From: Clostridiales bacterium
GTDB taxonomy: Bacteria > Bacillota > Clostridia > Lachnospirales > Lachnospiraceae
Length of the DNA: 64,000 nucleotides
Reading direction: 5' to 3'
Assembly: GCA_020860565.1 (NCBI GenBank)
Contig: JAJBUA010000028.1
Coordinates: 21,566 to 85,565 of the forward strand
The position numbers and the translations under genes were made by a program. The notes beneath the pieces were generated by a model, which saw only the letters and a list, made by a program, of their open reading frames with translations, was not told the origin of the DNA and ran no database searches. Shown here one piece after another: positions 7,733-49,347 of the stretch. Each line of letters starts with the position of its first letter. Within the stretch, counting starts at the first letter, position 1.

Positions 7733-8158
7733 TTAGTCCTCTGTAATTGCCGAATGAATGAGCGCGGCCGTCTCTGCCAGCTCCTCCGGAGCGGATTTAC
7801 CCGGCTTCCATGCTACCATTTCCGGTCCTCCCTCATATCTGGGGATAATATGGACGTGCAGATGAAAAACCGTCTGCCCCGCGCATGTCCCGTTGTTCTG
7901 AACGACATTAAAACCGGCCGCCCCGAGACCTTTTTTCATGCCCTTTCCGATTTTTGAAGCTAACGGAAACAGTTTCCCCGCTGTCTCTGCGTCTGCCTCT
8001 GTAATATCCTTAAAATGTGATTTTGGCAAAATCAGCGCATGACCCTTTGACGCCGGCCCCATATCGAGTATTACCCGAAATTCCTCATCCTCATATACGG
8101 TTGCAGACGGGATTTCTCCATTGGCAATTTTACAAAATATACAATTCTGATCGTTCAT
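7733..8158 (-). CDS. HIT (histidine triad) family protein
   Basis: Histidine triad HLHVHIIP and N-terminal CIFCKI zinc-binding-like motif; 141 aa. Confidence 0.9.
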   Translation of the reverse strand: MNDQNCIFCKIANGEIPSATVYEDEEFRVILDMGPASKGHALILPKSHFKDITEADAETAGKLFPLASKIGKGMKKGLGAAGFNVVQNNGTCAGQTVFHLHVHIIPRYEGGPEMVAWKPGKSAPEELAETAALIHSAITED

Positions 8159-21371: not shown

Positions 21372-22067
21372 ATGCAGACAATTCTGGTATGCGATGACGA
21401 TAAAGAAATTGTAGATGCCATTGACATCTATCTGACCGGAGAGGGTTTCCGTGTCCTGAAAGCCTACGATGGCTATGAGGCGCTGGACATCCTCGAAAAA
21501 GAATCCGCCGACCTGATGATCGTTGACGTGATGATGCCTTCCCTGGACGGCATCCGCACCACGTTAAAGGTCCGCGAGACCAGCAGTATCCCGATCATCA
21601 TCCTTTCCGCCAAATCAGAAGACACCGACAAGATTCTGGGTCTTAATATCGGAGCGGATGATTACCTGTCCAAACCGTTTAACCCACTCGAACTGGTCGC
21701 CCGCGTCAAATCCCAGCTGCGCCGCTACACCCAGCTCGGCAACATGAACCAGCAAACCAGCGATCAGGTTTTTAAATGCGGCGGCCTGTCCATCAATGAC
21801 GATACCAAGGAGGTCTTTGTGGATGATGAGCTCGTCCGGCTGACCCCGATCGAGTACAATATACTCCTCCTTCTGGTTAAAAACGCAGGTAAAGTGTTCT
21901 CTATTGATGAGATCTACAAACAGATCTGGAATGAAGAAGCCATCGGCGCGGATAATACCGTTGCCGTCCATATCCGCCACATCCGGGAAAAAATTGAAAT
22001 CAACCCCCGTGAACCGCGCTATCTCAAGGTTGTCTGGGGTGTCGGCTATAAGATCGAAAAACAGTAA
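21372..22067 (+). CDS. OmpR-family response regulator
   Basis: ILVCDDD, MIVDVMMPSLDG, IIILSAKS; winged helix VVWGVGYKIEK. Confidence 0.95.
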   Translation: MQTILVCDDDKEIVDAIDIYLTGEGFRVLKAYDGYEALDILEKESADLMIVDVMMPSLDGIRTTLKVRETSSIPIIILSAKSEDTDKILGLNIGADDYLSKPFNPLELVARVKSQLRRYTQLGNMNQQTSDQVFKCGGLSINDDTKEVFVDDELVRLTPIEYNILLLLVKNAGKVFSIDEIYKQIWNEEAIGADNTVAVHIRHIREKIEINPREPRYLKVVWGVGYKIEKQ

Positions 22068-33092: not shown

Positions 33093-33809
33093 ATGGCAGA
33101 AAAACAAAGAATTTTAATTGTAGATGATGATGAGAATATCGCGGAGCTGATTTCTCTCTATCTGACAAAAGAATGCTATGAGACCCAAATCGAATATGAC
33201 GGGGAGGCTGCTCTAAAAGCTGTCCCCACATTTCACCCGCACCTGATCCTGCTGGATCTGATGCTTCCCGGCATCGACGGATATCAGGTTTGCCGGGAAG
33301 TACGCAAAAACTCCCAGATACCGATTATCATGCTGTCCGCCAAAGGCGAAGTCTTTGACAAGGTTCTGGGGCTCGAACTCGGAGCGGATGACTATGTCAT
33401 CAAACCGTTTGATTCCAAAGAGCTCGTTGCCCGCGTCAAGGCGGTTCTGCGGCGCTATCAGCAACAGCCTGCCGCTGCTCCCGGCACTGCCGCCAGCCTT
33501 GAACCACAGGGCAAATATGTAAAGTACCCGGATCTGATTGTTAACCTGACAAACTACTCCGTCACCTACAAGGGGCGCACGGTCGATATGCCTCCCAAGG
33601 AACTGGAACTGCTTTATTTTCTGGCTTCTTCACCCAATCAGGTCTTTACCAGGGAACAGCTCCTCGACCATATCTGGGGCTATGAATATATCGGCGATAC
33701 CCGGACCGTTGACGTACATATCAAGCGCCTGCGCGAGAAAATCAAGGATCATGAGCACTGGGCCATTAGTACGGTCTGGGGAATCGGGTATAAATTTGAA
33801 GTCCGGTAG
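33093..33809 (+). CDS. OmpR-family response regulator (no kinase gene downstream)
   Basis: ILIVDDDE, LILLDLMLPGIDG, IIMLSAKG; winged helix TVWGIGYKFEV. Confidence 0.95.
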   Translation: MAEKQRILIVDDDENIAELISLYLTKECYETQIEYDGEAALKAVPTFHPHLILLDLMLPGIDGYQVCREVRKNSQIPIIMLSAKGEVFDKVLGLELGADDYVIKPFDSKELVARVKAVLRRYQQQPAAAPGTAASLEPQGKYVKYPDLIVNLTNYSVTYKGRTVDMPPKELELLYFLASSPNQVFTREQLLDHIWGYEYIGDTRTVDVHIKRLREKIKDHEHWAISTVWGIGYKFEVR

Positions 33810-33831
33810 CTGCTTTATATGCAAGGAGTCC

Positions 33832-33969
33832 GTCTCTGCGGGGGAAGAATATCCTCCGAGGACCGCTTGCGCTTAAGTTTTCACGTAGCGGTACTAAGCT
33901 CGCAAAAACCTGCTCGCTAAGTGCCGACGTGAAAAATGTCCTCTGCGGATATTCTTCCCCCGCAGAGAC
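33832..33969 (+). repeat. Extended-hairpin repeat element, copy A (candidate structured RNA or palindromic element)
   Basis: A 23-bp perfect basal stem, GTCTCTGCGGGGGAAGAATATCC / GGATATTCTTCCCCCGCAGAGAC, encloses a conserved core shared with copy B. The strand call rests only on one T-G pair. Confidence 0.85.
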
Positions 33970-33983
33970 TATTTTATTGGCAT

Positions 33984-34034
33984 ATATAAAATGGCATCTT
34001 CCAACGCTTTCATCTACCGTTGAAAGATGCCATT
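33984..34034 (-). terminator. Intrinsic terminator for the cell-wall-binding protein/kinase operon
   Basis: Stem AATGGCATCTT / AAGATGCCATT (11 bp) plus an inner CAACG/CGTTG. On the minus strand it is followed by TTTTATATAT. Confidence 0.55.
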
Positions 34035-34091
34035 CTCAATTTTATATTTCTTTTACCTGTTTCTGTAATTCTTCGCTATTTATATGCCTCT

Positions 34092-35021
34092 CTACTGCAC
34101 CCATACCCCGTCCGAACCGACATAATACCCGTCTGGCGTATAGGTATCGCCCAGCAGCGCTCCGTCTTCTCCACAATAATACCATTTATTATCCCAGTAG
34201 ATCCAGCCGTAGCGCCGGTATCCGTCGGAATTAAAGCAGTAATATTTTCCATCGATACACTGCCAGCAATTCTTAGGATAGGTTCCGTCTGCGTACTGAT
34301 ACCACCAGCCATATCCATCCTGGCACCAGTGATTTCCTCCGTAGGTTGCCGCTCCTACCGTCGAATTGCCATACGTTACGACTCCTACACCCTGTTCGAC
34401 GACTCCGCTGGTCGATGACGAAGAACTGGCTCCGCCGGGTCCGTAAGAATAACTGTACGAGTAGCTTCCCGTCACTCCCGGACCATGATTGACGTCTGCC
34501 GTACCGCTGCTGTAATCATCATCATCGTCGTAATCGTCCCGGATATCTCTCGCTTCCGATGACGACACATACCACAGATCCGAACTCACCCAGTCGCTGA
34601 CCACCGAATTCTGCCCCACTCCCCTTACCTCAAAATGATAATCTCCGGAAGTTGTAAAATAATTGCCAAATTCATAATAGGTTTCCTTGGTCGTCTTTGT
34701 CGCCCTGCAGCTGCTGCCCCGATACAGCTTAACCTCATATTTATACGCATATGAATTCTTATCCCAGCGGGCTGTTCCGCTCGATTCGTTCCAGCGAAGG
34801 CCGGTCACCACCAGATCATCCTCCGTCACATCCGAAGAGTCCGTCGCCGCCCAGGCAATAACCGGCAGCGACGCCATCGGAGTCAGGGACAGTATCACCA
34901 CAGCCGCTGCTGTCACTGCCAGCTTTACTGCTGCACCCAGGCACATTCCTTTATAATTTTTACTTTCTTTTTTCCCTGTCATCATCTCTGCGTACCTCAT
35001 ATCTGACTCCTTTCTTCTCAT
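34092..35021 (-). CDS. Secreted cell-wall-binding repeat protein
   Basis: Signal peptide ending PVIAWA/ATD and an acidic DYDDDDDY linker. C-terminal choline-binding-type repeats (GWWYQYADGTY, GKYYCFNSDGY, GWIYWDNKWYYCGEDGALL). Confidence 0.8.
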   Translation of the reverse strand: MRRKESDMRYAEMMTGKKESKNYKGMCLGAAVKLAVTAAAVVILSLTPMASLPVIAWAATDSSDVTEDDLVVTGLRWNESSGTARWDKNSYAYKYEVKLYRGSSCRATKTTKETYYEFGNYFTTSGDYHFEVRGVGQNSVVSDWVSSDLWYVSSSEARDIRDDYDDDDDYSSGTADVNHGPGVTGSYSYSYSYGPGGASSSSSTSGVVEQGVGVVTYGNSTVGAATYGGNHWCQDGYGWWYQYADGTYPKNCWQCIDGKYYCFNSDGYRRYGWIYWDNKWYYCGEDGALLGDTYTPDGYYVGSDGVWVQ

Positions 35022-35053
35022 GCGCAGGGACGCGAAAGGAAGTTCACTTCCTG

Positions 35054-36460
35054 CTATCGCTCAACCGCGCGCGGCAGCGTAAAGATAAATTCTGTTCCCA
35101 CATCTTTCGTACTGATCACGTCGATCGTTTCTTCATGCGCCTGAATAATCTCTTTTACGATCGCCAGGCCCAATCCGGTTCCCTTTTTATCCTTTCCCCG
35201 GGAGCTGTCCGTCTTATAGAAACGATCCCATATTTTCTTGATACTTTCTTTGGGAATGCCGATGCCGGTGTCTTTTACGGAGACATAAATCTTTCCGGAT
35301 CTCATATAAGACTGAATAAAAATGGTCGCCCCCTGGTGACTGAATTTGATTGCATTGTCAATTAGATTATACAACACCTGCTGAATTTTTCCAAGATCTG
35401 CATAAACCATTTCAATATTGTCAGAAAATGTTAAGTCAAACGTAATATCTTTCTCCATGCAAGTGACCTCAAAGGAAGCCGCCGTATCCTTGATTACACG
35501 GTTAATATCAAAATTGCTCCGGTTCAGATATCCCTTACTTTCCATCGAATTGAGTGTCAGCAGATCCTGCGTCAGTTTATTCAGCCTCTCGGTCTCCGAA
35601 ATGACCCTGCGCAGATATTTTTCCTGCATCTCAGGTGCGATCGTCCCGTCCAGAATCGCTTCCAGATAGCCTTTGATTGACGTGAGCGGCGATCGGAAAT
35701 CATGGGAAACATTCGCGACAAACGCACGCTGATATTCCTCCATCTTATTCAGTTCATCCGACATATAATTTAACGTCGCCGCCAGATACCCCATCTCATC
35801 GTGGGTATCCGCCTGAATCTGATAATCCAGATTGCCGGCCGCATACTGCTTCGCTCCCTCTGTGATCCGCAGCAACGGCAGATAAACCGTCGTTGTAAAA
35901 ATAATCAGAATGATCAGCGACAGGATAAAGATCACCAGCCCGCAGATATAAAAGAGGTTCAGATTATAATACCCTCTTGTGACCGCTTCTGACATCGGCA
36001 GATGGATCACCACATATCCGTAAGTATTGTAATTACCGGTAATCGGCGCGGATGCACTGATCACTTCTTCCGCAAACTGGCCAAAGTAATCCCCGATCAT
36101 ATAATGCTGATTGCCCATCGCGGCCGGATCAAAATTCTCAATCTGGATCCCGGTCTCACCGGGCTCACTGCTTTTGGTTACAATCACTCCGTAGCGATTG
36201 ACGATCCAGATGTCCGCGTTCAGATATCCGGCAATCGCTTCAATCCCGGAATAAACCATACTGGAGTCCTGCCGTTTTCCCTGATACAGGCTGCTGAACT
36301 CAGAGGCAATGGTATTCGCCTCATCGTACAGGGACTCCGCCTGCACGCTTACCTCCTGATCCTGCAGAACCTGTGCGAAAACAGTTGAGATTACGGCGAA
36401 TCCCAGAAGGCCGAAAATGAGATATCCTAAAAGGAATTTTATGTAAAGAGAATGTTTCAT
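35054..36460 (-). CDS. Sensor histidine kinase (no regulator gene adjacent on this strand)
   Basis: Two TMs flank an ~150-aa sensor domain, followed by HAMP. H-box VSHDFRSPLTSIKGY, N-box LIDNAIKFS, G-box GTGLGLAIVKEII. Confidence 0.9.
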   Translation of the reverse strand: MKHSLYIKFLLGYLIFGLLGFAVISTVFAQVLQDQEVSVQAESLYDEANTIASEFSSLYQGKRQDSSMVYSGIEAIAGYLNADIWIVNRYGVIVTKSSEPGETGIQIENFDPAAMGNQHYMIGDYFGQFAEEVISASAPITGNYNTYGYVVIHLPMSEAVTRGYYNLNLFYICGLVIFILSLIILIIFTTTVYLPLLRITEGAKQYAAGNLDYQIQADTHDEMGYLAATLNYMSDELNKMEEYQRAFVANVSHDFRSPLTSIKGYLEAILDGTIAPEMQEKYLRRVISETERLNKLTQDLLTLNSMESKGYLNRSNFDINRVIKDTAASFEVTCMEKDITFDLTFSDNIEMVYADLGKIQQVLYNLIDNAIKFSHQGATIFIQSYMRSGKIYVSVKDTGIGIPKESIKKIWDRFYKTDSSRGKDKKGTGLGLAIVKEIIQAHEETIDVISTKDVGTEFIFTLPRAVER

Positions 36461-36510
36461 AAGTCACCATGTCTGTGTCAGATTTATGAGAAGCTATGTT
36501 ATCAGTACCT

Positions 36511-36541
36511 CGTCCGTCCCTGAAAGGAGAGAATATCCTCC
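36511..36541 (+). repeat. Half copy (5' arm only) of the extended-hairpin repeat, copy C
   Basis: CGTCC-GTCCCTGAAAGGAGAGAATATCC-TCC matches the 5' flank, the 23-nt arm and the first 3 core nt of copies A and B. No complementary arm lies nearby. Confidence 0.7.
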
Positions 36542-36869
36542 CATTTATTAGTAGTATACATAATTTTCAGATTTCACGCAATCCCACACCGTAAGATATT
36601 ATCCTCGCGCTGCAATGTCAATCATGACCCCCACCAATTCGACTGTAAAAATTTTACTGACATTTTCTGACGTACTATCCAATAATCCCTCAGTAAAATC
36701 TTCTTGTCCTTGAGCATACTACTATCGTAATCATCGAGCAGAATGATTGTTCTCTGCTTGACGTACAGTGTGCGTCCGGCTGCAGCCAGATAACTGCCCG
36801 GTGCGTTCCTGCTCACGTAACTGCCGGTCTTTCCGGCAATTGCGACCCTACAAAGAAAGGAGAATCGCT

Positions 36870-37097
36870 ATGACTTCAACCTCAACCTGCGAATGCAGCG
36901 CCGCCCCCGCGTCCTGTGGCTGTGACGAGAAGCTTCCCGGCGTATCAGAAAGCGCCGGTCTGTGCCTCACGATCGCAACCGTCCCGATGCAGTTCTGGGA
37001 GACGCCCTATGACTGTGCCTGCGCGTTAAATCAAGGCACGATCTTTCCCTCTCTGGACAAACCATTTTTCAAAAATGGAGGTGATCGTCATGTCTAA
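36870..37097 (+). CDS. cotJA: Spore coat-associated protein CotJA
   Basis: ATVPMQFWETPYD...ALNQGTIFPSLDKPF motif. Start after AAAGGAGA; the track ORF starts at 36768. Confidence 0.85.
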   Translation: MTSTSTCECSAAPASCGCDEKLPGVSESAGLCLTIATVPMQFWETPYDCACALNQGTIFPSLDKPFFKNGGDRHV

Positions 37098-37389
37098 CCG
37101 TGTTCAATGCTTACAGGAAATCCAGGAGGCCGGATTTGAGATCGATGACCTGACCCTCTATCTGGACACCCATCCTCTGGATACCACCGCGCTGGAGTCT
37201 TTCAATAAAGCCCGCGAGCGGCGTTATGAACTTCTGAAAAATTATGCCAGAGACTATGAACCGCTCAATCTCTATCTCGTGGATCCGGCAAATAACAACG
37301 AAACGGAGAGTTACAGCAAGTATCTCGGCAAGGAACATTTTACCTGGACAGACGGACCTCTGCCCTGGGACAATCAGGGAGGTGTGTAA
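37090..37389 (+). CDS. cotJB: Spore coat protein CotJB
   Basis: LQEIQEAGFEIDDLTLYLDTHP... pattern. Start after GGAGGTGA; overlaps the cotJA end by 8 nt. Confidence 0.85.
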   Translation: MSNRVQCLQEIQEAGFEIDDLTLYLDTHPLDTTALESFNKARERRYELLKNYARDYEPLNLYLVDPANNNETESYSKYLGKEHFTWTDGPLPWDNQGGV

Positions 37390-37391
37390 TT

Positions 37392-38003
37392 ATGTGGACT
37401 TATGAGAAACGACTCCAGTTCCCGGTCAATATCCGGAAAACCTGCCCGAAAACCGCTTCTCTGATCATCAGTCAGTTTGGCGGTCCGGACGGAGAGATGG
37501 CTGCTTCCATGCGTTATCTTTCCCAGCGTTTTACGATGCCATGCAAGGAATGTGCCGGCCTGCTGACGGATATCGGTACGGAGGAACTGGCGCACCTGGA
37601 GATGGTTGGCGCCATCATCTACCAGCTTACGAAAAATATGAAACCGGAGGACGCAAAGGCTGCCGGATTTGACGCCTATTATATTGATCATACCGCCGGT
37701 GTCTGGCCGACCGCAGCAGCCGGCGTCCCCTTTAATGCCTGTGAATTCCAGTCTAAGGGGGATGCCATTACTGACCTCTATGAAGATATGGCTGCCGAAC
37801 AGAAGGCGCGCTCCACGTATGAAAACCTGATCCGGATTATCGATGACCCGGATGTTCTGGCTCCGCTTAAGTTTCTGCGGGAAAGGGAGATCGTGCACTT
37901 CCAGAGGTTTGGTGAGGCAATGGAGAAGATCAAGTCGCAGCTGGATGAGAGGAACTTCTATTACTTTAATCCGGAGTTTGATAAGCAGTTTGTGCTGAAT
38001 TAA
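37392..38003 (+). CDS. cotJC: Manganese catalase-family spore coat protein CotJC
   Basis: MWTYEKRLQFPV start. Di-metal ligand segments EMAASMRYLSQ and EELAHLEMVG; 203 aa. Confidence 0.9.
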   Translation: MWTYEKRLQFPVNIRKTCPKTASLIISQFGGPDGEMAASMRYLSQRFTMPCKECAGLLTDIGTEELAHLEMVGAIIYQLTKNMKPEDAKAAGFDAYYIDHTAGVWPTAAAGVPFNACEFQSKGDAITDLYEDMAAEQKARSTYENLIRIIDDPDVLAPLKFLREREIVHFQRFGEAMEKIKSQLDERNFYYFNPEFDKQFVLN

Positions 38004-38019
38004 GCAGCGGCAAAGCAGC

Positions 38020-38066
38020 AAAACAACAGCCCATTGGGAATGTCTTCCTTCTGGGCTGTTGTTTTT
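38020..38066 (+). terminator. Intrinsic terminator after cotJC
   Basis: A 14-bp perfect stem, AAAACAACAGCCCA / TGGGCTGTTGTTTT, running into a T tract. Confidence 0.85.
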
Positions 38067-38106
38067 ACCTTATCTTATCTGGCGCAAGGCTATTGTCGGA
38101 CAGTCC

Positions 38107-38250
38107 GTCCCTGAGAGGGAAACATATCCTCCGAGGACCGCTCTCGCTTAAGTTTTCACGTAGCGGTACTAAACTCACCGGAAAAGCATCCGGTTCGTTA
38201 AGTGCCGACGTGAAAAATGTCCTCTGCGGATATGTTTCCCTCTCAGGGAC
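38107..38250 (+). repeat. Extended-hairpin repeat element, copy B
   Basis: A 23-bp perfect basal stem, GTCCCTGAGAGGGAAACATATCC / GGATATGTTTCCCTCTCAGGGAC. The core is near-identical to copy A; the tip is replaced by ACCGGA-AAAGCA-TCCGGT. Confidence 0.85.
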
Positions 38251-38330
38251 TAATGTATTGGCATAATCTTATCAGAAATAGATTATATTGAATGCAACTG
38301 TCTTTAATAATTTAAAAGTTCTTTCCTACA

Positions 38331-40919
38331 TCACTCCACATACGCAATCAGCTTATCATGGTTCGCCGAGGTATCGATTACGATCACCTGTCCCTGATGG
38401 ATATTGCCCTGCAGAATGATCCTTGCGGCTAATGTTTCGACATTTTTCTGCAAATAGCGTCTGAGCGGCCGTGCGCCGTAGGTTGGGTCGTAGGCGTTTT
38501 CTGCGGTGAAGTTTTTCGCGTCGTCTGTAAGTTCTACGGTCAGTTCTTTATCCGCCAGCCGACGATTGATATCTGCCACCATCAGGTCGATGATGTGTGA
38601 TATGTCGTCTTTCGTCAGCGGTTTAAAGAGGATCGTCTCGTCCAGACGGTTAAGGAATTCCGGACGGAAGTGTTCTCTCAGCTCGCCCAGTACCATCTGC
38701 TCTGCCTCCGGACGGATGGTTCCGTCAGCGTCGATTCCATCCAGCAGGTACTGCGAACCGATGTTGGACGTCATGATCAGGATTGTATTTTTGAAATCGA
38801 CAGTCTTGCCAGTAGAATCGGTGATCCGACCGTCATCCAGTACCTGCAGCAGCACATTGAAGACATCCGGATGGGCTTTTTCTACTTCATCGAAAAGTAC
38901 TACGGAATATGGTTTTCTGCGTACTGCCTCGGTCAGCTGGCCGCCTTCTTCGTATCCGACATATCCTGGAGGCGCTCCGATCAGACGGGCAACGGAATGT
39001 TTCTCCATGTACTCGCTCATATCGATCCGCACGATGTTATTTTCATCGTCAAAAAGAACTTCCGCAAGTGCCTTGGCAAGCTCAGTTTTTCCGACACCGG
39101 TTGGACCGAGGAATAAGAAGGAACCGATCGGCTTGCTCGGATCTTTGATGCCTGCCTTGGATCTCAGGATCGCTTCGGTTACTTTTTGTACGCCTTCATC
39201 CTGGCCGACGACCCGTTTGTGCAGCTGTTCGTCCAGATGCAGGATCTTGCTGCGCTCGGATTCATTCAGCTTACTTACCGGGATACCGGTCCAGCGGGAG
39301 ATAATCCGTGCGATCTCATCCTCTGTGACGCTTTCATGCACCAGACTCAGATCCTGATTGCGGACTTTTTCTTCCTCCTGCTCCAGATCCTTCTGCAGCT
39401 GCGGCAGCTTGCCGTACTGGAGCTCAGCGGCTTTATTCAGGTCATAGGACTGCTGTGCCTGAGCGATATCGCGGTTGACCTGTTCAATCTCCTCGCGAAG
39501 TGACGACAGACGGTCTACACTGGCCTTTTCATTTTCCCACTGAGCCTTGCGAGACGCGAACTCATCATGCAGTTCCGCCAGATTTTTCTGCAGCTCTGCC
39601 AGACGTTCCTGACTCAGATGATCCGTTTCTTTCTTCAGCGCGGTCTCCTCGATCTCCATCTGCATGATCCGCCGGGAGAGCTCGTCCAGTTCGGTCGGCA
39701 TGGAGTCGAGCTCGGTCTTGATCAGCGCACATGCCTCATCGACCAGATCGATGGCCTTATCCGGCAGAAAACGGTCGCTGATATAGCGATCCGAGAGCGT
39801 TGCCGCCGCGACCAGTGCCGAATCGGTAATCTTTACTCCATGGAAGACCTCGTAGCGGTCCTTGATACCACGCAGGATTGAGATCGTATCCTCAACGCTC
39901 GGCTGATCCACCATAACCGGCTGGAACCGGCGTTCCAGCGCGGCGTCTTTCTCAATGTATTTGCGATACTCATCCAGTGTCGTCGCACCGATGCAGTGCA
40001 GCTCGCCGCGGGCAAGCATCGGCTTGAGCAGATTTCCGGCATCCATCGAGCCTTCGGTCTTGCCTGCGCCGACGATGGTATGCAACTCATCGATAAAGAG
40101 GATGATTTCTCCTTCGCTCTTTTTCACTTCCTCCAGAACCGCTTTCAGACGCTCCTCAAACTCTCCGCGGTACTTTGCACCTGCGATCAGCGCGCCCATA
40201 TCCAGAGAAAAGAGCTTGCGGTTCTTCAGCCCCTCCGGTACATCTCCGCGGACGATCCGCTGTGCCAGACCTTCCACGACGGCGGTCTTGCCGACGCCGG
40301 GTTCCCCGATCAGTACCGGATTATTCTTGGTCTTACGGGAGAGGATGCGGATCACATTGCGGATCTCACTGTCTCGGCCAATGACCGGATCGAGTTTCTG
40401 GCTGCGCGCCCGTTCTACCAGATCCTGACCATATTTTTCCAGAGTATCGTAGGTCGCCTCCGGGTTATCGCTTGTCACCCGCTGGTTCCCGCGGACCGTG
40501 GAAAGCGCCTGCAAAAAGGCGTCCCGCGTGATGCCGTACTGACGGAACAGTTCCCGCATCGTCCGGTCGGCATGTTTGATCATCGAGAGGAAGATATGTT
40601 CCACAGAAACATATTCATCCCCCATCGCGCGTGATTCGTCCTCCGCATTGATCAGGACTTTATTCAGATCATTGCTGATATAAACCTGTCCGCCGCTCAC
40701 TTTTGGCAGCGCAGCGAGTTTCTGCTCTGCCTCATTGGTAATCAATTCCTTTGTAATGCCCATCTTGGTCAGCAGTTTTAGGATCAGACTCTCTTCCAGC
40801 GTCAGCAGGCTGTAAAAGAGATGCTCCTGCTCGATCTGCTGGTTTCCGTATTCATATGCCAGCTTTTCACAGTTCTGCACCGCTTCCATGGACTTCTGTG
40901 TAAATTTCTGTATATTCAT
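38331..40919 (-). CDS. clpB: ATP-dependent chaperone ClpB
   Basis: Two AAA+ modules (GEPGVGKTA and [14 protein letters not shown]) with a long coiled-coil middle domain. Start at [10 protein letters not shown] after AGGAGG; the track ORF extends to 40967. Confidence 0.95.
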
Positions 40920-42321: not shown

Positions 42322-42567
42322 CACAATTACTCCTGCTGTCCGTTTCTTCTCACTTTCATCACTGATTGTTTTCCCCATCCATAGACAGTTCATGCCAGTT
42401 GTCCGATCACCAACTGATTCATGTCCTGGTCAGTATCTTTCCAGACGTAATCATACCATATTTTACATTTTCTTCAACTTGTATATTTATCATCCTGCGA
42501 TTCCCGGTTAGCATCCTTAGCATTTCCATTTGTACTTTCCCCTTTTTTATCGTATGATAAAGGTGAG

Positions 42568-43485
42568 GTGATAAAAATAGATTTCATGAAAATTCATTTA
42601 CTCGTACATAAAAAAAATCTCGTCACACTTCTTCCCACTTTCCTGATGGTGATACTCACTCTCGTTTCCTGCACTTCCACAGAAACCGACAGCAGCACCG
42701 CACAGGAAACCGCGGAGATTACCATCACGGTAGATGATCCGCTGACCATGACCTTCGTCGATGCCCACGATAATACCTATCAGATGGAAATTGATCCGGA
42801 TGTCGCTCCTAATTCTTATGTTCCTGACTGCTTTATCCGCAGCGGAGACCGGCTCTCTTATGAGGATGCGCAAACCACTTCCCGCATCGGTCTTGACGTT
42901 TCCTATTATCAGGGGGATATTGACTGGGAGCGGGTAAAAGCCGACGAAATGGAGTTTGTTATCCTGAGACTCGGATACCGCGGGTATGGATCCGCGGGAA
43001 GCCTGAATGTCGATTCCAGCTTCTCTGATAATCTGAAAGGAGCACAGCAGGCAGGACTGGATGTGGGCGTATATTTCTTTTCTCAGGCCGTCAACGAAGA
43101 GGAAGCCATCGAAGAAGCACAGTTTGTCATAAACTGCCTGGACGGACAGGATCTGCAACTGCCGATCGTCTTTGATCCGGAACATGTAACTGGTGTGGAA
43201 TCGCGTGTCAATACTGTAACCCGCGAACAATTTACCCAAAACGCCATCGCATTCTGCGATACCGTTCAGGATGCCGGATACGACGCCATGATTTACTGTA
43301 ATATGATCTGGCAAGCATACTGGCTTGACCTGAAAGAGCTGGCAGACTATTCGATCTGGTACGCGGACTATCAGCCGCTCCCGCAGACGCCTTATAATTT
43401 TGCGTTCTGGCAGTATACGGAGAGCGGACGGGTGGATGGGATCAGCGGGGATGTTGATCTGAATATTCAAATAATCCGAAAATAA
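42568..43485 (+). CDS. GH25 muramidase (lysozyme), lipoprotein-type signal
   Basis: GLDVSYYQGDIDW and VILRLGYRGYG motifs with a lipobox-like LTLVSCTS. The start may be the Met at 42586. Confidence 0.85.
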   Translation: MIKIDFMKIHLLVHKKNLVTLLPTFLMVILTLVSCTSTETDSSTAQETAEITITVDDPLTMTFVDAHDNTYQMEIDPDVAPNSYVPDCFIRSGDRLSYEDAQTTSRIGLDVSYYQGDIDWERVKADEMEFVILRLGYRGYGSAGSLNVDSSFSDNLKGAQQAGLDVGVYFFSQAVNEEEAIEEAQFVINCLDGQDLQLPIVFDPEHVTGVESRVNTVTREQFTQNAIAFCDTVQDAGYDAMIYCNMIWQAYWLDLKELADYSIWYADYQPLPQTPYNFAFWQYTESGRVDGISGDVDLNIQIIRK

Positions 43486-47605: not shown

Positions 47606-47634
47606 TTGAGCTTTGAATGTTTTTATCGTATGAT
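47606..47634 (+). promoter_or_regulatory. Sigma-A-like promoter of the PucR-family gene
   Basis: TTGAGC, a 17-nt spacer, then TATGAT. It lies very close to the RBS, so it is tentative. Confidence 0.4.
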
Positions 47635-47652
47635 AGCAACGAGGTGATCAAA

Positions 47653-49347
47653 ATGGCTTTAACTATTGACTGGCTGCTGAATCAGACTTCTCTGCCCGGG
47701 TTTTCTCTCCTTGTCGGAGAAGGCCCTTTTAAACAAACGATTTCCGGCGTCAATATCATTGACAATCCTAATACCGTTCCCTGGCTCTCCGAAGGCACCC
47801 TTGTTCTGTCTACCGGCTATCTCCTATCTCAATCGGAATTATCCAGGGACATTATCCACCAGCTTCATCAGAAGAACTGTGCCGGCTTCGCAATCAAGAT
47901 GAACCGTTACCTGGACAAACTCTCGCCGGAAATGATTTTTCAGGCTGAACAATTACATTTTCCTGTCATTGGTATCCCTTTTTCCTGTAATCTGGAACAA
48001 GTCACCAACCTGATCTACCGCAGACTTTTTGATGAAGAAATGGACGAAGCAGGAAAACGGATTCTGGCCTACCAGAATATCAGCGATTGCATCTTAAAGG
48101 AAAAATCAATGACCCGGGCGTTGGATATTATCAGCAATATTTTCCAGTGCAGCGTTTATCTGACAACCCCCTCTTATGAGATTATTGATTACTCTCTCCG
48201 GGACGATAATCTGTATCCTTTTCTTTCCGACAGGGATACCTATACCCTCTTTTCTGATACCGATATCCAATATCTGAAAAAGAGCTACATAGATCACCCG
48301 TTTCCATTAAATACACACCAGGTCACTAATGGTTCCAGCACTCAGGACTTTCAGATCCTGTCTATTACAAACCAGGGACAACTGTTGGGATTTCTGATTC
48401 TCGCACATATATCGTTCAGGGATAACTATAGCCTGTATACATTTCTTACAAACCTTCCCTCGATCCTCAGTATTGGAATTTTGAATCAATCGATATATGT
48501 CAAAAACAACAGGCTCTCCAATAAAGAGATTTTTTTCCAGAAGCTTCTCTCCGGAGAACCGGATTCGGTTCAGGAAACAGAAACTTTGTGCATGAGAAAC
48601 CATTTTGATTACAGAACCAGCCGCATATGTATCCTTTTCAGTCTTGGAAATTACGAGCATCTCCCCTTTGTGCGTCAACGCCCTGCCGAACACAGGATTA
48701 TGGAACTTGTAAAACCCCATCTGAAAAAATACTGGGATAATTATCAATACACATTTTATGAGAACCAGCTTATATTATTTTTATTCACCGAAAACCGGTT
48801 ATCTCACACGGACTATATGACCCGCGGCCTGGAAACAGCAGAAAACCTGTCTCAGCTTCTTACCAGTAACGGATTTTCTTCCCGTGCAGGCATCAGTTCG
48901 GACAGCAGCGGAGCCATGACAATCCACACCGCCTATCAGCAGGCCCGGCAGGCGCTTGAAACCGGTCCGAAACTACACCCGGAAAACCATTGCTTTTCCT
49001 ATTTTCAGGATCGCATCTATCATAAACTCATGAATCATTTTACCTATCGTGAGCTCCATGAGATCTATGCGGAATACCTGGAATGCCTAGAACGATACGA
49101 TCTTGAAAATCACACCGAACTTCTGACCGCACTTCAGGCTTACCTTCTTTGCGGCTGTAATGCCTCCAGAACGGCGAAAGAGCTCTTTATTCACCGCAAT
49201 ACCATGTCTTACCGGCTGGAGCAAATCAGAAATCTTCTCGGAATTGATCTGAAAAATCCGGAGGAATGCCTTTCTCTGCAAATCGCGTTTTATGTGCGTA
49301 CACTTCTGAATCAGACGCAACCAAAAGGACCTACCGAATACACTTAA
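47653..49347 (+). CDS. PucR-family transcriptional regulator
   Basis: N-terminal PucR-type domain (LPGFSLLVGEG...VLSTGY). C-terminal PucR HTH (AKELFIHRNTMSYRLEQIRNLLG). Start after GAGGTGA; the track ORF starts at 47617. Confidence 0.85.
   Translation: MALTIDWLLNQTSLPGFSLLVGEGPFKQTISGVNIIDNPNTVPWLSEGTLVLSTGYLLSQSELSRDIIHQLHQKNCAGFAIKMNRYLDKLSPEMIFQAEQLHFPVIGIPFSCNLEQVTNLIYRRLFDEEMDEAGKRILAYQNISDCILKEKSMTRALDIISNIFQCSVYLTTPSYEIIDYSLRDDNLYPFLSDRDTYTLFSDTDIQYLKKSYIDHPFPLNTHQVTNGSSTQDFQILSITNQGQLLGFLILAHISFRDNYSLYTFLTNLPSILSIGILNQSIYVKNNRLSNKEIFFQKLLSGEPDSVQETETLCMRNHFDYRTSRICILFSLGNYEHLPFVRQRPAEHRIMELVKPHLKKYWDNYQYTFYENQLILFLFTENRLSHTDYMTRGLETAENLSQLLTSNGFSSRAGISSDSSGAMTIHTAYQQARQALETGPKLHPENHCFSYFQDRIYHKLMNHFTYRELHEIYAEYLECLERYDLENHTELLTALQAYLLCGCNASRTAKELFIHRNTMSYRLEQIRNLLGIDLKNPEECLSLQIAFYVRTLLNQTQPKGPTEYT

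Follow-up and report, generated by a model that had tools for sequence, protein, structure and literature searches.

A candidate family of small interspersed hairpin repeats with a near-invariant core and covarying stems in gut Clostridia

Two hairpin-forming sequences in the stretch of DNA analysed here (64 kb, hereafter the window) appear, on balance, to be copies of a previously undescribed family of small interspersed non-coding hairpin repeats, non-autonomous and mobile or recently mobile. Each copy has a fixed central core and a closing stem in which pairing is preserved although the sequence varies, and the unit is probably not an RNA gene. The family is much larger than two copies could show, and more modular and mosaic. 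Although the family itself is new and its architecture unusual, it is of a known general kind.

Two full copies and a truncated copy in the window

Copy A occupies positions 33832-33969 (138 nt) and copy B positions 38107-38250 (144 nt). The earlier note had described them as one repeat of about 140 nt that can be aligned from end to end, and the comparison bears this out, as the mean column identity is 86% and the fold is the same. Each detail of the architecture proposed there was recovered too. The basal stem of copy A, the variable closing stem of the element, is formed on the plus strand by the 5' arm 33832-33854 and the 3' arm 33947-33969, and that of copy B by 38107-38129 and 38228-38250. 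Both stems consist of 23 base pairs with no mismatches in the fold and in the comparison of the arms. Next inward are a 3x3 internal loop TCC/TGC and the helix GAGGAC/GTCCTC, followed by a 14-nt bulge on the 5' side (CGCTTGCGCTTAAG in A, CGCTCTCGCTTAAG in B). Beyond the bulge lie the helices TTTTCACGT/ACGTGAAAA and CGGTACT/AGTGCCG, the latter with one T.G pair. Towards the apex, an A.A mismatch leads into a 3-bp helix, which is followed by a TC/TC loop and finally by the variable tip. The conserved core of copy A (33858-33943, plus strand), delimited by the fold and by a nucleotide diversity near zero across the 51 copies described below, thus reads GAGGAC, 14-nt bulge, TTTTCACGT, AG, CGGTACT, apical hairpin, AGTGCCG, ACGTGAAAA, AT, GTCCTC.

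The basal arms of the two copies differ at positions 4, 8, 10, 16 and 17, and all five differences are compensated in the opposite arm. The sixth compensated change that had been reported, AGC/GCT in A versus AAC/GTT in B, is present in the apical part of the alignment. The predicted folding energies are -85.6 kcal/mol for A (z -13.4) and -88.9 kcal/mol for B (z -13.6), and none of 200 shuffled sequences folded as stably as either copy. The hairpin of A and B is a feature far beyond chance, and chance or an assembly artefact was rejected as its source. The reverse strands of both copies have equally stable predicted folds.

Short flanks are common to A and B, as had been noticed earlier: AGTCC on the left and TATTGGCATA on the right. 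Conserved sequence outlasts the hairpin, covering on the plus strand positions 33815-33989 in copy A (left flank TTATATGCAAGGAGTCC, right flank TATTTTATTGGCATATATAA; flank alignment) and 38092-38265 in copy B. In blastn comparisons with the MAG copies introduced in the next section, the similarity of the copy A region spans 33808/33815-33989, with 93% identity over 182 nt to locus L035, while copy B is 95% identical over 170 nt to locus L025. The immediate flanks, GTCC on the left and TAC-TTT on the right, are common even to distant GC-rich relatives. Outside both stem ends, at a distance of about 10-15 nt, there is a conserved ATTGRC motif in direct orientation.

A repeat search revealed a truncated third copy at 36488-36548 (plus strand), consisting of a left flank and a 5' basal arm (36512-36541, GTCCGTCCCTGAAAGGAGAGAATATCCTCC). 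A right arm matching it and a longer parent element were searched for in the window and in the loci, and neither was found. Profile searches with nhmmer identified no more full copies in the 64-kb window or in close relatives.

Size and distribution of the family

A collection of species-representative genomes was searched for exact matches to a 26-mer taken from the core on its 3' side. The 26-mer matched 46 loci with about 52 copies on both strands, all in a single MAG, Clostridiales bacterium BH.7_2. At least 51 full copies, located at unrelated loci, could be delimited in this MAG. Three size classes can be distinguished, 138, 144 and 187 nt, and the longest carries an additional 43-nt hairpin nested inside the apical stem. 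No gene was common to the window and the MAG among the loci compared.

The second query, the 18-mer TTTTCACGTAGCGGTACT, was applied to metagenomes and yielded 99 loci, mainly from human gut. They represent about 12 genomic contexts, frequently with two or three copies within 15 kb. Nearly all of these loci have the same architecture and very different closing stems. Thus the repeat that the earlier note had seen in two copies has at least 51 members in one MAG and further members in some dozen gut contexts, and its distribution is dispersed and patchy among lineages. A metagenome scan with a 21-mer from the 3' part of the core gave no matches. Viral contigs, plasmids and phages gave none either, and therefore there is no sign of a plasmid or phage origin. 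Literature searches found no paper containing the core sequence and no description of a small interspersed repeat in gut Clostridia.

Two Logan short-read contigs of the same organism stop inside the copies, L047 at window position 33874 (copy A) and L048 at 38131 (copy B); the repeat therefore breaks assemblies.

Conservation of pairing

The claim that pairing, and not sequence, is kept in the stems around a nearly invariant inner core extends from two copies to the whole family. In the alignment of 51 copies, 97.4% of the pair cells form standard pairs, compared to 88.4% in column shuffles and about 42% when the partners are slid by one to three columns. Changes on both sides occur in 28 of the 68 pairs (295 cells), and none of 500 shuffles reached any of the observed pairing measures. 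The nucleotide diversity is 0.25-0.27 in the basal arms, up to about 0.5 in the variable apical helices and 0.18 in the apical loop, and it is essentially zero in the core (GAGGAC, helix 3 and helix 4 with their partners). There are 39 distinct basal arms among the 51 copies around an almost invariant core of about 90 nt. The invariance of the core is not merely a product of the search, because the 5' halves of the core lay outside the query and the 8-kb loci contained no full copies with a diverged core.

The core helices change in distant gut relatives, and they change by covariation. The pair TTTTCACGT/ACGTGAAAA is replaced by GAAGAACGT/ACGTTCTTC, TTCTTACGT/ACGTAAGAA or TTCTCGCGT/ACGCGAGAA, GAGGAC/GTCCTC by CAGACC/GGTCTG, and CGG.../...CCG by TGG.../...CCA. 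Therefore the fold is conserved across a wide evolutionary range, and the refutation that the earlier note had allowed for, uncompensated stem changes in a larger alignment, did not materialise.

In ordinary RNA helices G.U intermediates build up, and compensated substitution is slower than neutral change. Here one-sided G.U changes account for 13 cells of the 51-copy alignment, as against the 295 cells with double changes. The rarity of these intermediates, together with a diversity of the stems equal to or above that of the apical loop, argues for strict upkeep of Watson-Crick pairing rather than for the drift of an ordinary RNA helix. Template switching at quasi-palindromes is a process that could copy one arm to the other, and active copying of this kind would fit the data. 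So would strong selection on replication competence in an element population that is turning over, by analogy with what has been proposed for REPINs (PMC3116915).

Strict Watson-Crick pairing is also what one would see in a site that the host uses as double-stranded DNA or as a cruciform, for instance to bind a nucleoid protein, gyrase or a recombinase. Such a site would be dispersed in the manner of REP/BIME sequences, and the protein would bind at the core. Both arms of the core are invariant, placement independent of orientation would be natural for such a site, and ATTGRC stands in direct orientation on either side. However, a duplex site has no need for a 23-bp closing stem of free sequence or for compensated 3-bp helices, the asymmetric 14-nt bulge and the fixed mismatches make sense only in a folded single strand, and no candidate protein is known. 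We regard this explanation as unlikely.

Strand and transcript context

All copies are intergenic and adjoin ordinary housekeeping genes. They usually lie close to the 3' end of a gene, nearer to the upstream stop codon than to the downstream start. Between co-directional genes the plus strand of the element is antisense in 22 copies and sense in 10; the further contexts are convergent for nine copies and divergent for three. Among 50 MAG copies the local GC skew in the plus orientation of the element is negative in 36 and positive in 14 (p = 0.005), that is, in 36 of the 50 the element plus strand coincides with the C-rich, gene-antisense strand. Skew correlates with the gene strand (r = 0.9), and therefore replication and transcription are inseparable here.

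The earlier note had taken the T.G pair of the apical stem as a pointer to a plus-strand RNA. This conclusion finds no support here. Firstly, the pair is invariant in all 51 close copies and is therefore a fixed feature and not a matter of tolerance. Secondly, distant relatives have T-A in its place or an A.G mismatch next to it, so that it gives no pointer to the functional strand. Thirdly, the fold energies of close copies do not differ between the strands, and those of distant relatives show a weak trend in favour of the minus strand, which is better in 15 cases of 20. Finally, the plus strand is mostly gene-antisense, as described above.

These observations bear on the possibility that the copies are an independently transcribed family of small RNA genes on the plus strand, encoding a trans-acting sRNA or an RNP component. 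Such genes could have a conserved core and covarying helices, and the invariant T.G is a standard pair on the plus strand only. However, the unit has no conserved promoter or terminator of its own, the orientation bias disfavours the plus strand (which is the C-rich one in 36 copies of 50), the minus strand folds equally well or better, and the T.G pair gives way to T-A or stands beside A.G in relatives. Moreover, more than 50 copies accompanied by half-copies and mosaics would be atypical of an sRNA gene. Copies are found in both orientations, expression signals of their own are lacking, and the neighbouring genes are unrelated from copy to copy. Rfam 15 scans returned tRNA only for the whole window at the gathering thresholds, nothing relevant for 33600-38500 at E<=10, and tRNA only for ten gut loci at E<=1, in agreement with the earlier failure to recognise a named RNA family. 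An sRNA gene family is thus unlikely. A small ORF was rejected too, as the core has stops in all frames and the element has no coding potential. Neither is the element a riboswitch or leader, since the copies sit at the 3' ends of genes and between convergent genes, nor an intrinsic terminator, since no U-tract is located behind the hairpin.

The few imperfections of the stems are distributed unevenly between the strands. On the sense strand of the flanking genes, the single stem mismatches read as G.T in 17 cases and as A.C in 3 (two-sided binomial p ~0.003). The tally was made copy by copy, both arm by arm and on the alignment, and two rows with misaligned basal stems were dropped; a census based on MFE structures was too noisy and was replaced by these counts. 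The excess of G.T on the gene-sense strand holds for copies of both orientations. At two loci sampled in many gut metagenomes the common alleles are G-C, G.T and A-T on the gene-sense strand, with the per-locus polymorphism groups partly confounded by mixed paralogues. Either the fold matters on the sense or lagging-template strand, whichever of the two it is, or mismatches arise asymmetrically on it; in both cases the effect does not follow one particular strand of the element. Possible causes are an RNA-level constraint in 3' UTRs and strand-biased C-to-T mutation.

The positions of terminators in the window are relevant to the first of these. Copy A is followed by a bidirectional terminator-like hairpin at 33990-34034. 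With transcription ending there, copy A belongs to the 3' UTR of the response-regulator gene, whose stop is at 33809, and is not reached by the transcript of the minus-strand gene at 34092-35021. A similar bidirectional hairpin at 38020-38065 stands before copy B. It stops the cotJ transcript ahead of B, whereas the clpB transcript (stop at 38331) would cross B in antisense and end at this hairpin. Judging by these terminator positions, copy A would be transcribed in sense in the response-regulator 3' UTR, and copy B would be transcribable in antisense only, in the 3' UTR of clpB.

The main rival to a mobile repeat is accordingly a structured cis-acting RNA in mRNA 3' UTRs, such as an exonuclease barrier, a processing site for RNase III or another enzyme, or a protein-binding hairpin. 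Selection would act on the transcript in any orientation, and the spread of the element would be secondary. The copies lie between stop codons and terminators; every helix covaries, including those of two or three base pairs and across species; the extra modules can expand helices; and unpaired nucleotides are strongly conserved. The 17 of 20 single mismatches would be G.U in RNA read from the strand of the flanking genes, and the orthologous alleles form a series G-C, G.T, A-T on that strand. BOX, ERIC and Correia repeats are precedents, as they act on co-transcribed mRNAs (PMC3049150). On the other hand, the element is used in two orientations, so that the core must function whichever complement is read. 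In contrast to typical RNA helices, the family as a whole has very few G.U pairs, and the loss of one pair from a hairpin of -85 kcal/mol should barely matter, yet the pairing is near perfect. Finally, a C-to-T bias on the non-transcribed or lagging-template strand could give the same G.T excess. A role as 3'-UTR RNA is a serious possibility, though one that we hold to be considerably less probable than a mobile repeat. By analogy with BOX, ERIC and Correia repeats, it could coexist with mobility.

Modules, gain and loss of copies

The family is modular. The 43-nt hairpin module is present in 17-18 of the 51 MAG copies, namely the long ones of 181-187 nt. Some gut relatives have a module of about 55 nt, GTAACTGAGATCTTAACGAGGCTAGCCGAGTTTAGTTCGAAGTTATACAGAGT, inserted in helix 3. 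It is found in the 3' arm in L063 (about 8010-8065) and L055, and its reverse complement in the 5' arm of L097 (about 7900-7950). The basal stem of copy A recurs in copies that differ in bulge type, insertion module and apex, five combinations in all, and therefore modules have been exchanged between copies.

Some MAG loci contain half-copies, with one to three left halves in tandem directly upstream of a full copy. They were found in L043 (3890-4045, minus strand), L037 (1836-1900), L011 (7339-7383) and L010 (6960-7050). All left half-copies are broken at or just after GCGCTTAG and are joined via a spacer of the ATTGACAA type. The recurrence of this breakpoint suggests a site of specific cleavage or template switching.

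Three relatives, with about 75% protein identity, have no element at the orthologous site of copy A; a terminator is all that lies between their response-regulator and choline-binding genes. In a closer relative, L049 (94.5% identity), the left flank and the first six bases of the stem remain; a junction at the microhomology CTCT connects them to the stop of the gene that follows. This loss is a 250-bp deletion (window 33838-34087) and not a precise excision. The absence of the element from the site in the more distant relatives and the remnant in L049 together fit a lineage-specific gain followed by decay. The same relative lacks the 61-nt block 36488-36548 of the truncated copy, which is bounded in the window by ATTTAT direct repeats. 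Deletion beside the hairpins thus appears to be an active route of decay.

A clean pair of filled and empty sites or a precise excision was not seen, both differences in L049 being microhomology deletions, and an extra adjacent copy in some gut samples proved to be a replacement rather than a simple insertion. A scan of 44 copies for target-site duplications at all boundary offsets (k = 3, 4, 5, 6, 8 and 9) detected only a conserved TATA/ATA in 7-12 copies. No transposase-like gene was found among the genes examined between or beside the copies. A phmmer search of 3136 ORFs (about 460 kb) for a Y1 transposase was also negative; it was a weak search, with IS200 TnpA and E. coli RayT sequences as queries.

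Comparison with known repeat families

REPINs are REP doublets mobilised by RAYT tyrosine HUH transposases and are known mainly from Proteobacteria and cyanobacteria, whereas the present family is from gut Clostridia. The GTAG directly 5' of the apical hairpin (CACGTAGCGGTAC...) is, as we take it, reminiscent of the 5' tetranucleotide of REP sequences. The likeness to REPINs is considerable: both are extragenic imperfect hairpins of roughly 100-190 nt with tens to hundreds of copies, compensation, half-elements and tandem clusters. Compensatory hairpin changes are common in REPINs, which coexist with REP singlets and clusters, and no target-site duplication has been described for them (PMC3116915). 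The elements studied here agree with the definition given there in being extragenic, in having two inverted arms that form a hairpin, and in carrying compensatory changes. However, REPINs have conserved ends and a variable spacer, whereas the present family shows the reverse, a variable closing stem around an invariant centre.

The streptococcal BOX element, boxA-boxB(n)-boxC, is modular, often co-transcribed with its neighbours and enriched near the 3' ends of genes (PMC3049150). Like it, the present family is a Firmicutes intergenic repeat of 100-200 nt with pairing terminal modules, optional self-folding internal modules and a 3'-proximal location. The modularity is of the BOX kind, with the 43-nt module in a third of the MAG copies and, among gut relatives, the module of about 55 nt in one arm or the other. 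The difference, in a comparison made by description and not by sequence, is that the terminal modules of BOX are conserved in sequence and resemble the ends of ISSpn2, whereas here the arms vary. The family thus most resembles REPINs in its hairpin, compensation, singlets and clusters, and BOX in its pairing ends, optional modules and 3'-proximal placement.

Correia and ERIC MITEs are likewise small, non-coding, hairpin-forming and intergenic, and MITEs can sit in transcripts and be processed. However, MITEs have terminal inverted repeats matching a parent IS and target-site duplications, and neither was found here. An ordinary MITE was rejected, as the arms are the most variable part of the element (39 variants in 51 copies), no longer element with the same ends exists in the window or loci, and there is no variable target-site duplication. 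The attC sites of integrons are imperfect hairpins of 60-140 nt that act as a folded single strand, and they too conserve structure above sequence. In contrast to the present family, the stem base of an attC site carries RYYYAAC...GTTRRRY, its centre varies, and it is located in a cassette array beside an integrase. The elements studied here lack R/L boxes, their stem base is GTC...GAC and their centre is conserved. Moreover, they are scattered among housekeeping genes such as mutS2, clpB and polC, so attC was rejected as well. The earlier failure to recognise an attC stands, and the ordinary MITE that the earlier note had named as a possible refutation is not borne out.

A possible mode of propagation

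As a mobile repeat, the element would be moved in trans and would act as a single-stranded hairpin. The core of about 90 nt, with its three helices, 14-nt bulge and fixed mismatches, may be the recognition module for a trans-acting protein. The sole requirement for the closing stem, of 23 bp or longer, would be Watson-Crick pairing, kept through selection for replication competence or through templated correction from arm to arm, while the apical part would take optional hairpin modules. Copies would settle in intergenic DNA near the 3' ends of genes in both orientations, swap modules by recombination and vanish by microhomology deletion. Against a mobile repeat stand the negative searches for a transposase, a variable target-site duplication and a clean empty site described above, and two further observations. 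Firstly, the most conserved part is the centre and not the ends, the reverse of MITEs and REPINs, and a conserved centre would be expected of a functional RNA or a protein-binding site. Secondly, the predominance of G.T among mismatches on the gene-sense strand (17 of 20) and the G-C/G.T/A-T alleles fit a constraint on the transcript.

A more specific and rather doubtful proposal is that the copies represent a widespread undescribed class of single-strand structured elements of human-gut Clostridia in which the core is a protein substrate and the arms are kept complementary by active templating of one arm on the other, and not by compensatory evolution in the usual two steps. Such templating would account for the speed of change at paired positions, which equals that of loops even though 97% of the pairing stays Watson-Crick. 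Under the templating proposal the core-binding protein could be a new transposase or recombinase specific for hairpins; alternatively, it could be a factor that binds or processes RNA in 3' UTRs.

If the preferred reading of a mobile or recently mobile repeat is true, it adds a repeat system to gut Clostridia, although the family alone reveals no new biological principle. It also provides over 100 natural variants of one hairpin, in which the core is fixed and the closing stem free, as a data set on the upkeep of complementarity and on the protein that reads the core. The points to follow are the conserved core, the strictly Watson-Crick and fast-evolving stems, and the asymmetry of mismatches on the sense strand. 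In practice the repeat is a possible marker for strain typing, and it should be masked in screens for RNA motifs and sRNAs.

Other features

A second repeat is present in the MAG as tandem arrays of a unit of about 100 nt with three hairpins, TTATCGAAAGTTCC-GTCA-GGAACTTTCGATAA, GGCGCATGC..GCGCC and ATTATGGGGTTCTGCGTCAGCAGGTTCCCATAAT. Such arrays occupy L035 3102-3700 and the flanks of many copies in L005, L011, L013, L024, L032, L033 and L046, and the hairpin element of the MAG is often embedded in them or abuts them. In the window a piece of the second repeat of about 20 nt (AATCTTATCAGAAATAGATTAT) follows copy B at 38262-38285.

A tRNA gene in L064 (5342-5413) is located about 285 nt downstream of a copy from a gut relative; no general association with tRNA genes was seen. 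The window segments 21588-21727 and 33318-33457 are 71% identical, belong to paralogous genes of OmpR-type response regulators and lie outside the repeat family.

A 41-nt direct repeat, TTTTTATCGTATGATA....GAGGTGAT.AAAAT.G.TTT, was found in the window at 42544-42584 and 47620-47660, the two occurrences being 80% identical. Each is located just upstream of the start of a plus-strand gene and runs into it. The repeat may be a shared operator or leader of the two genes.
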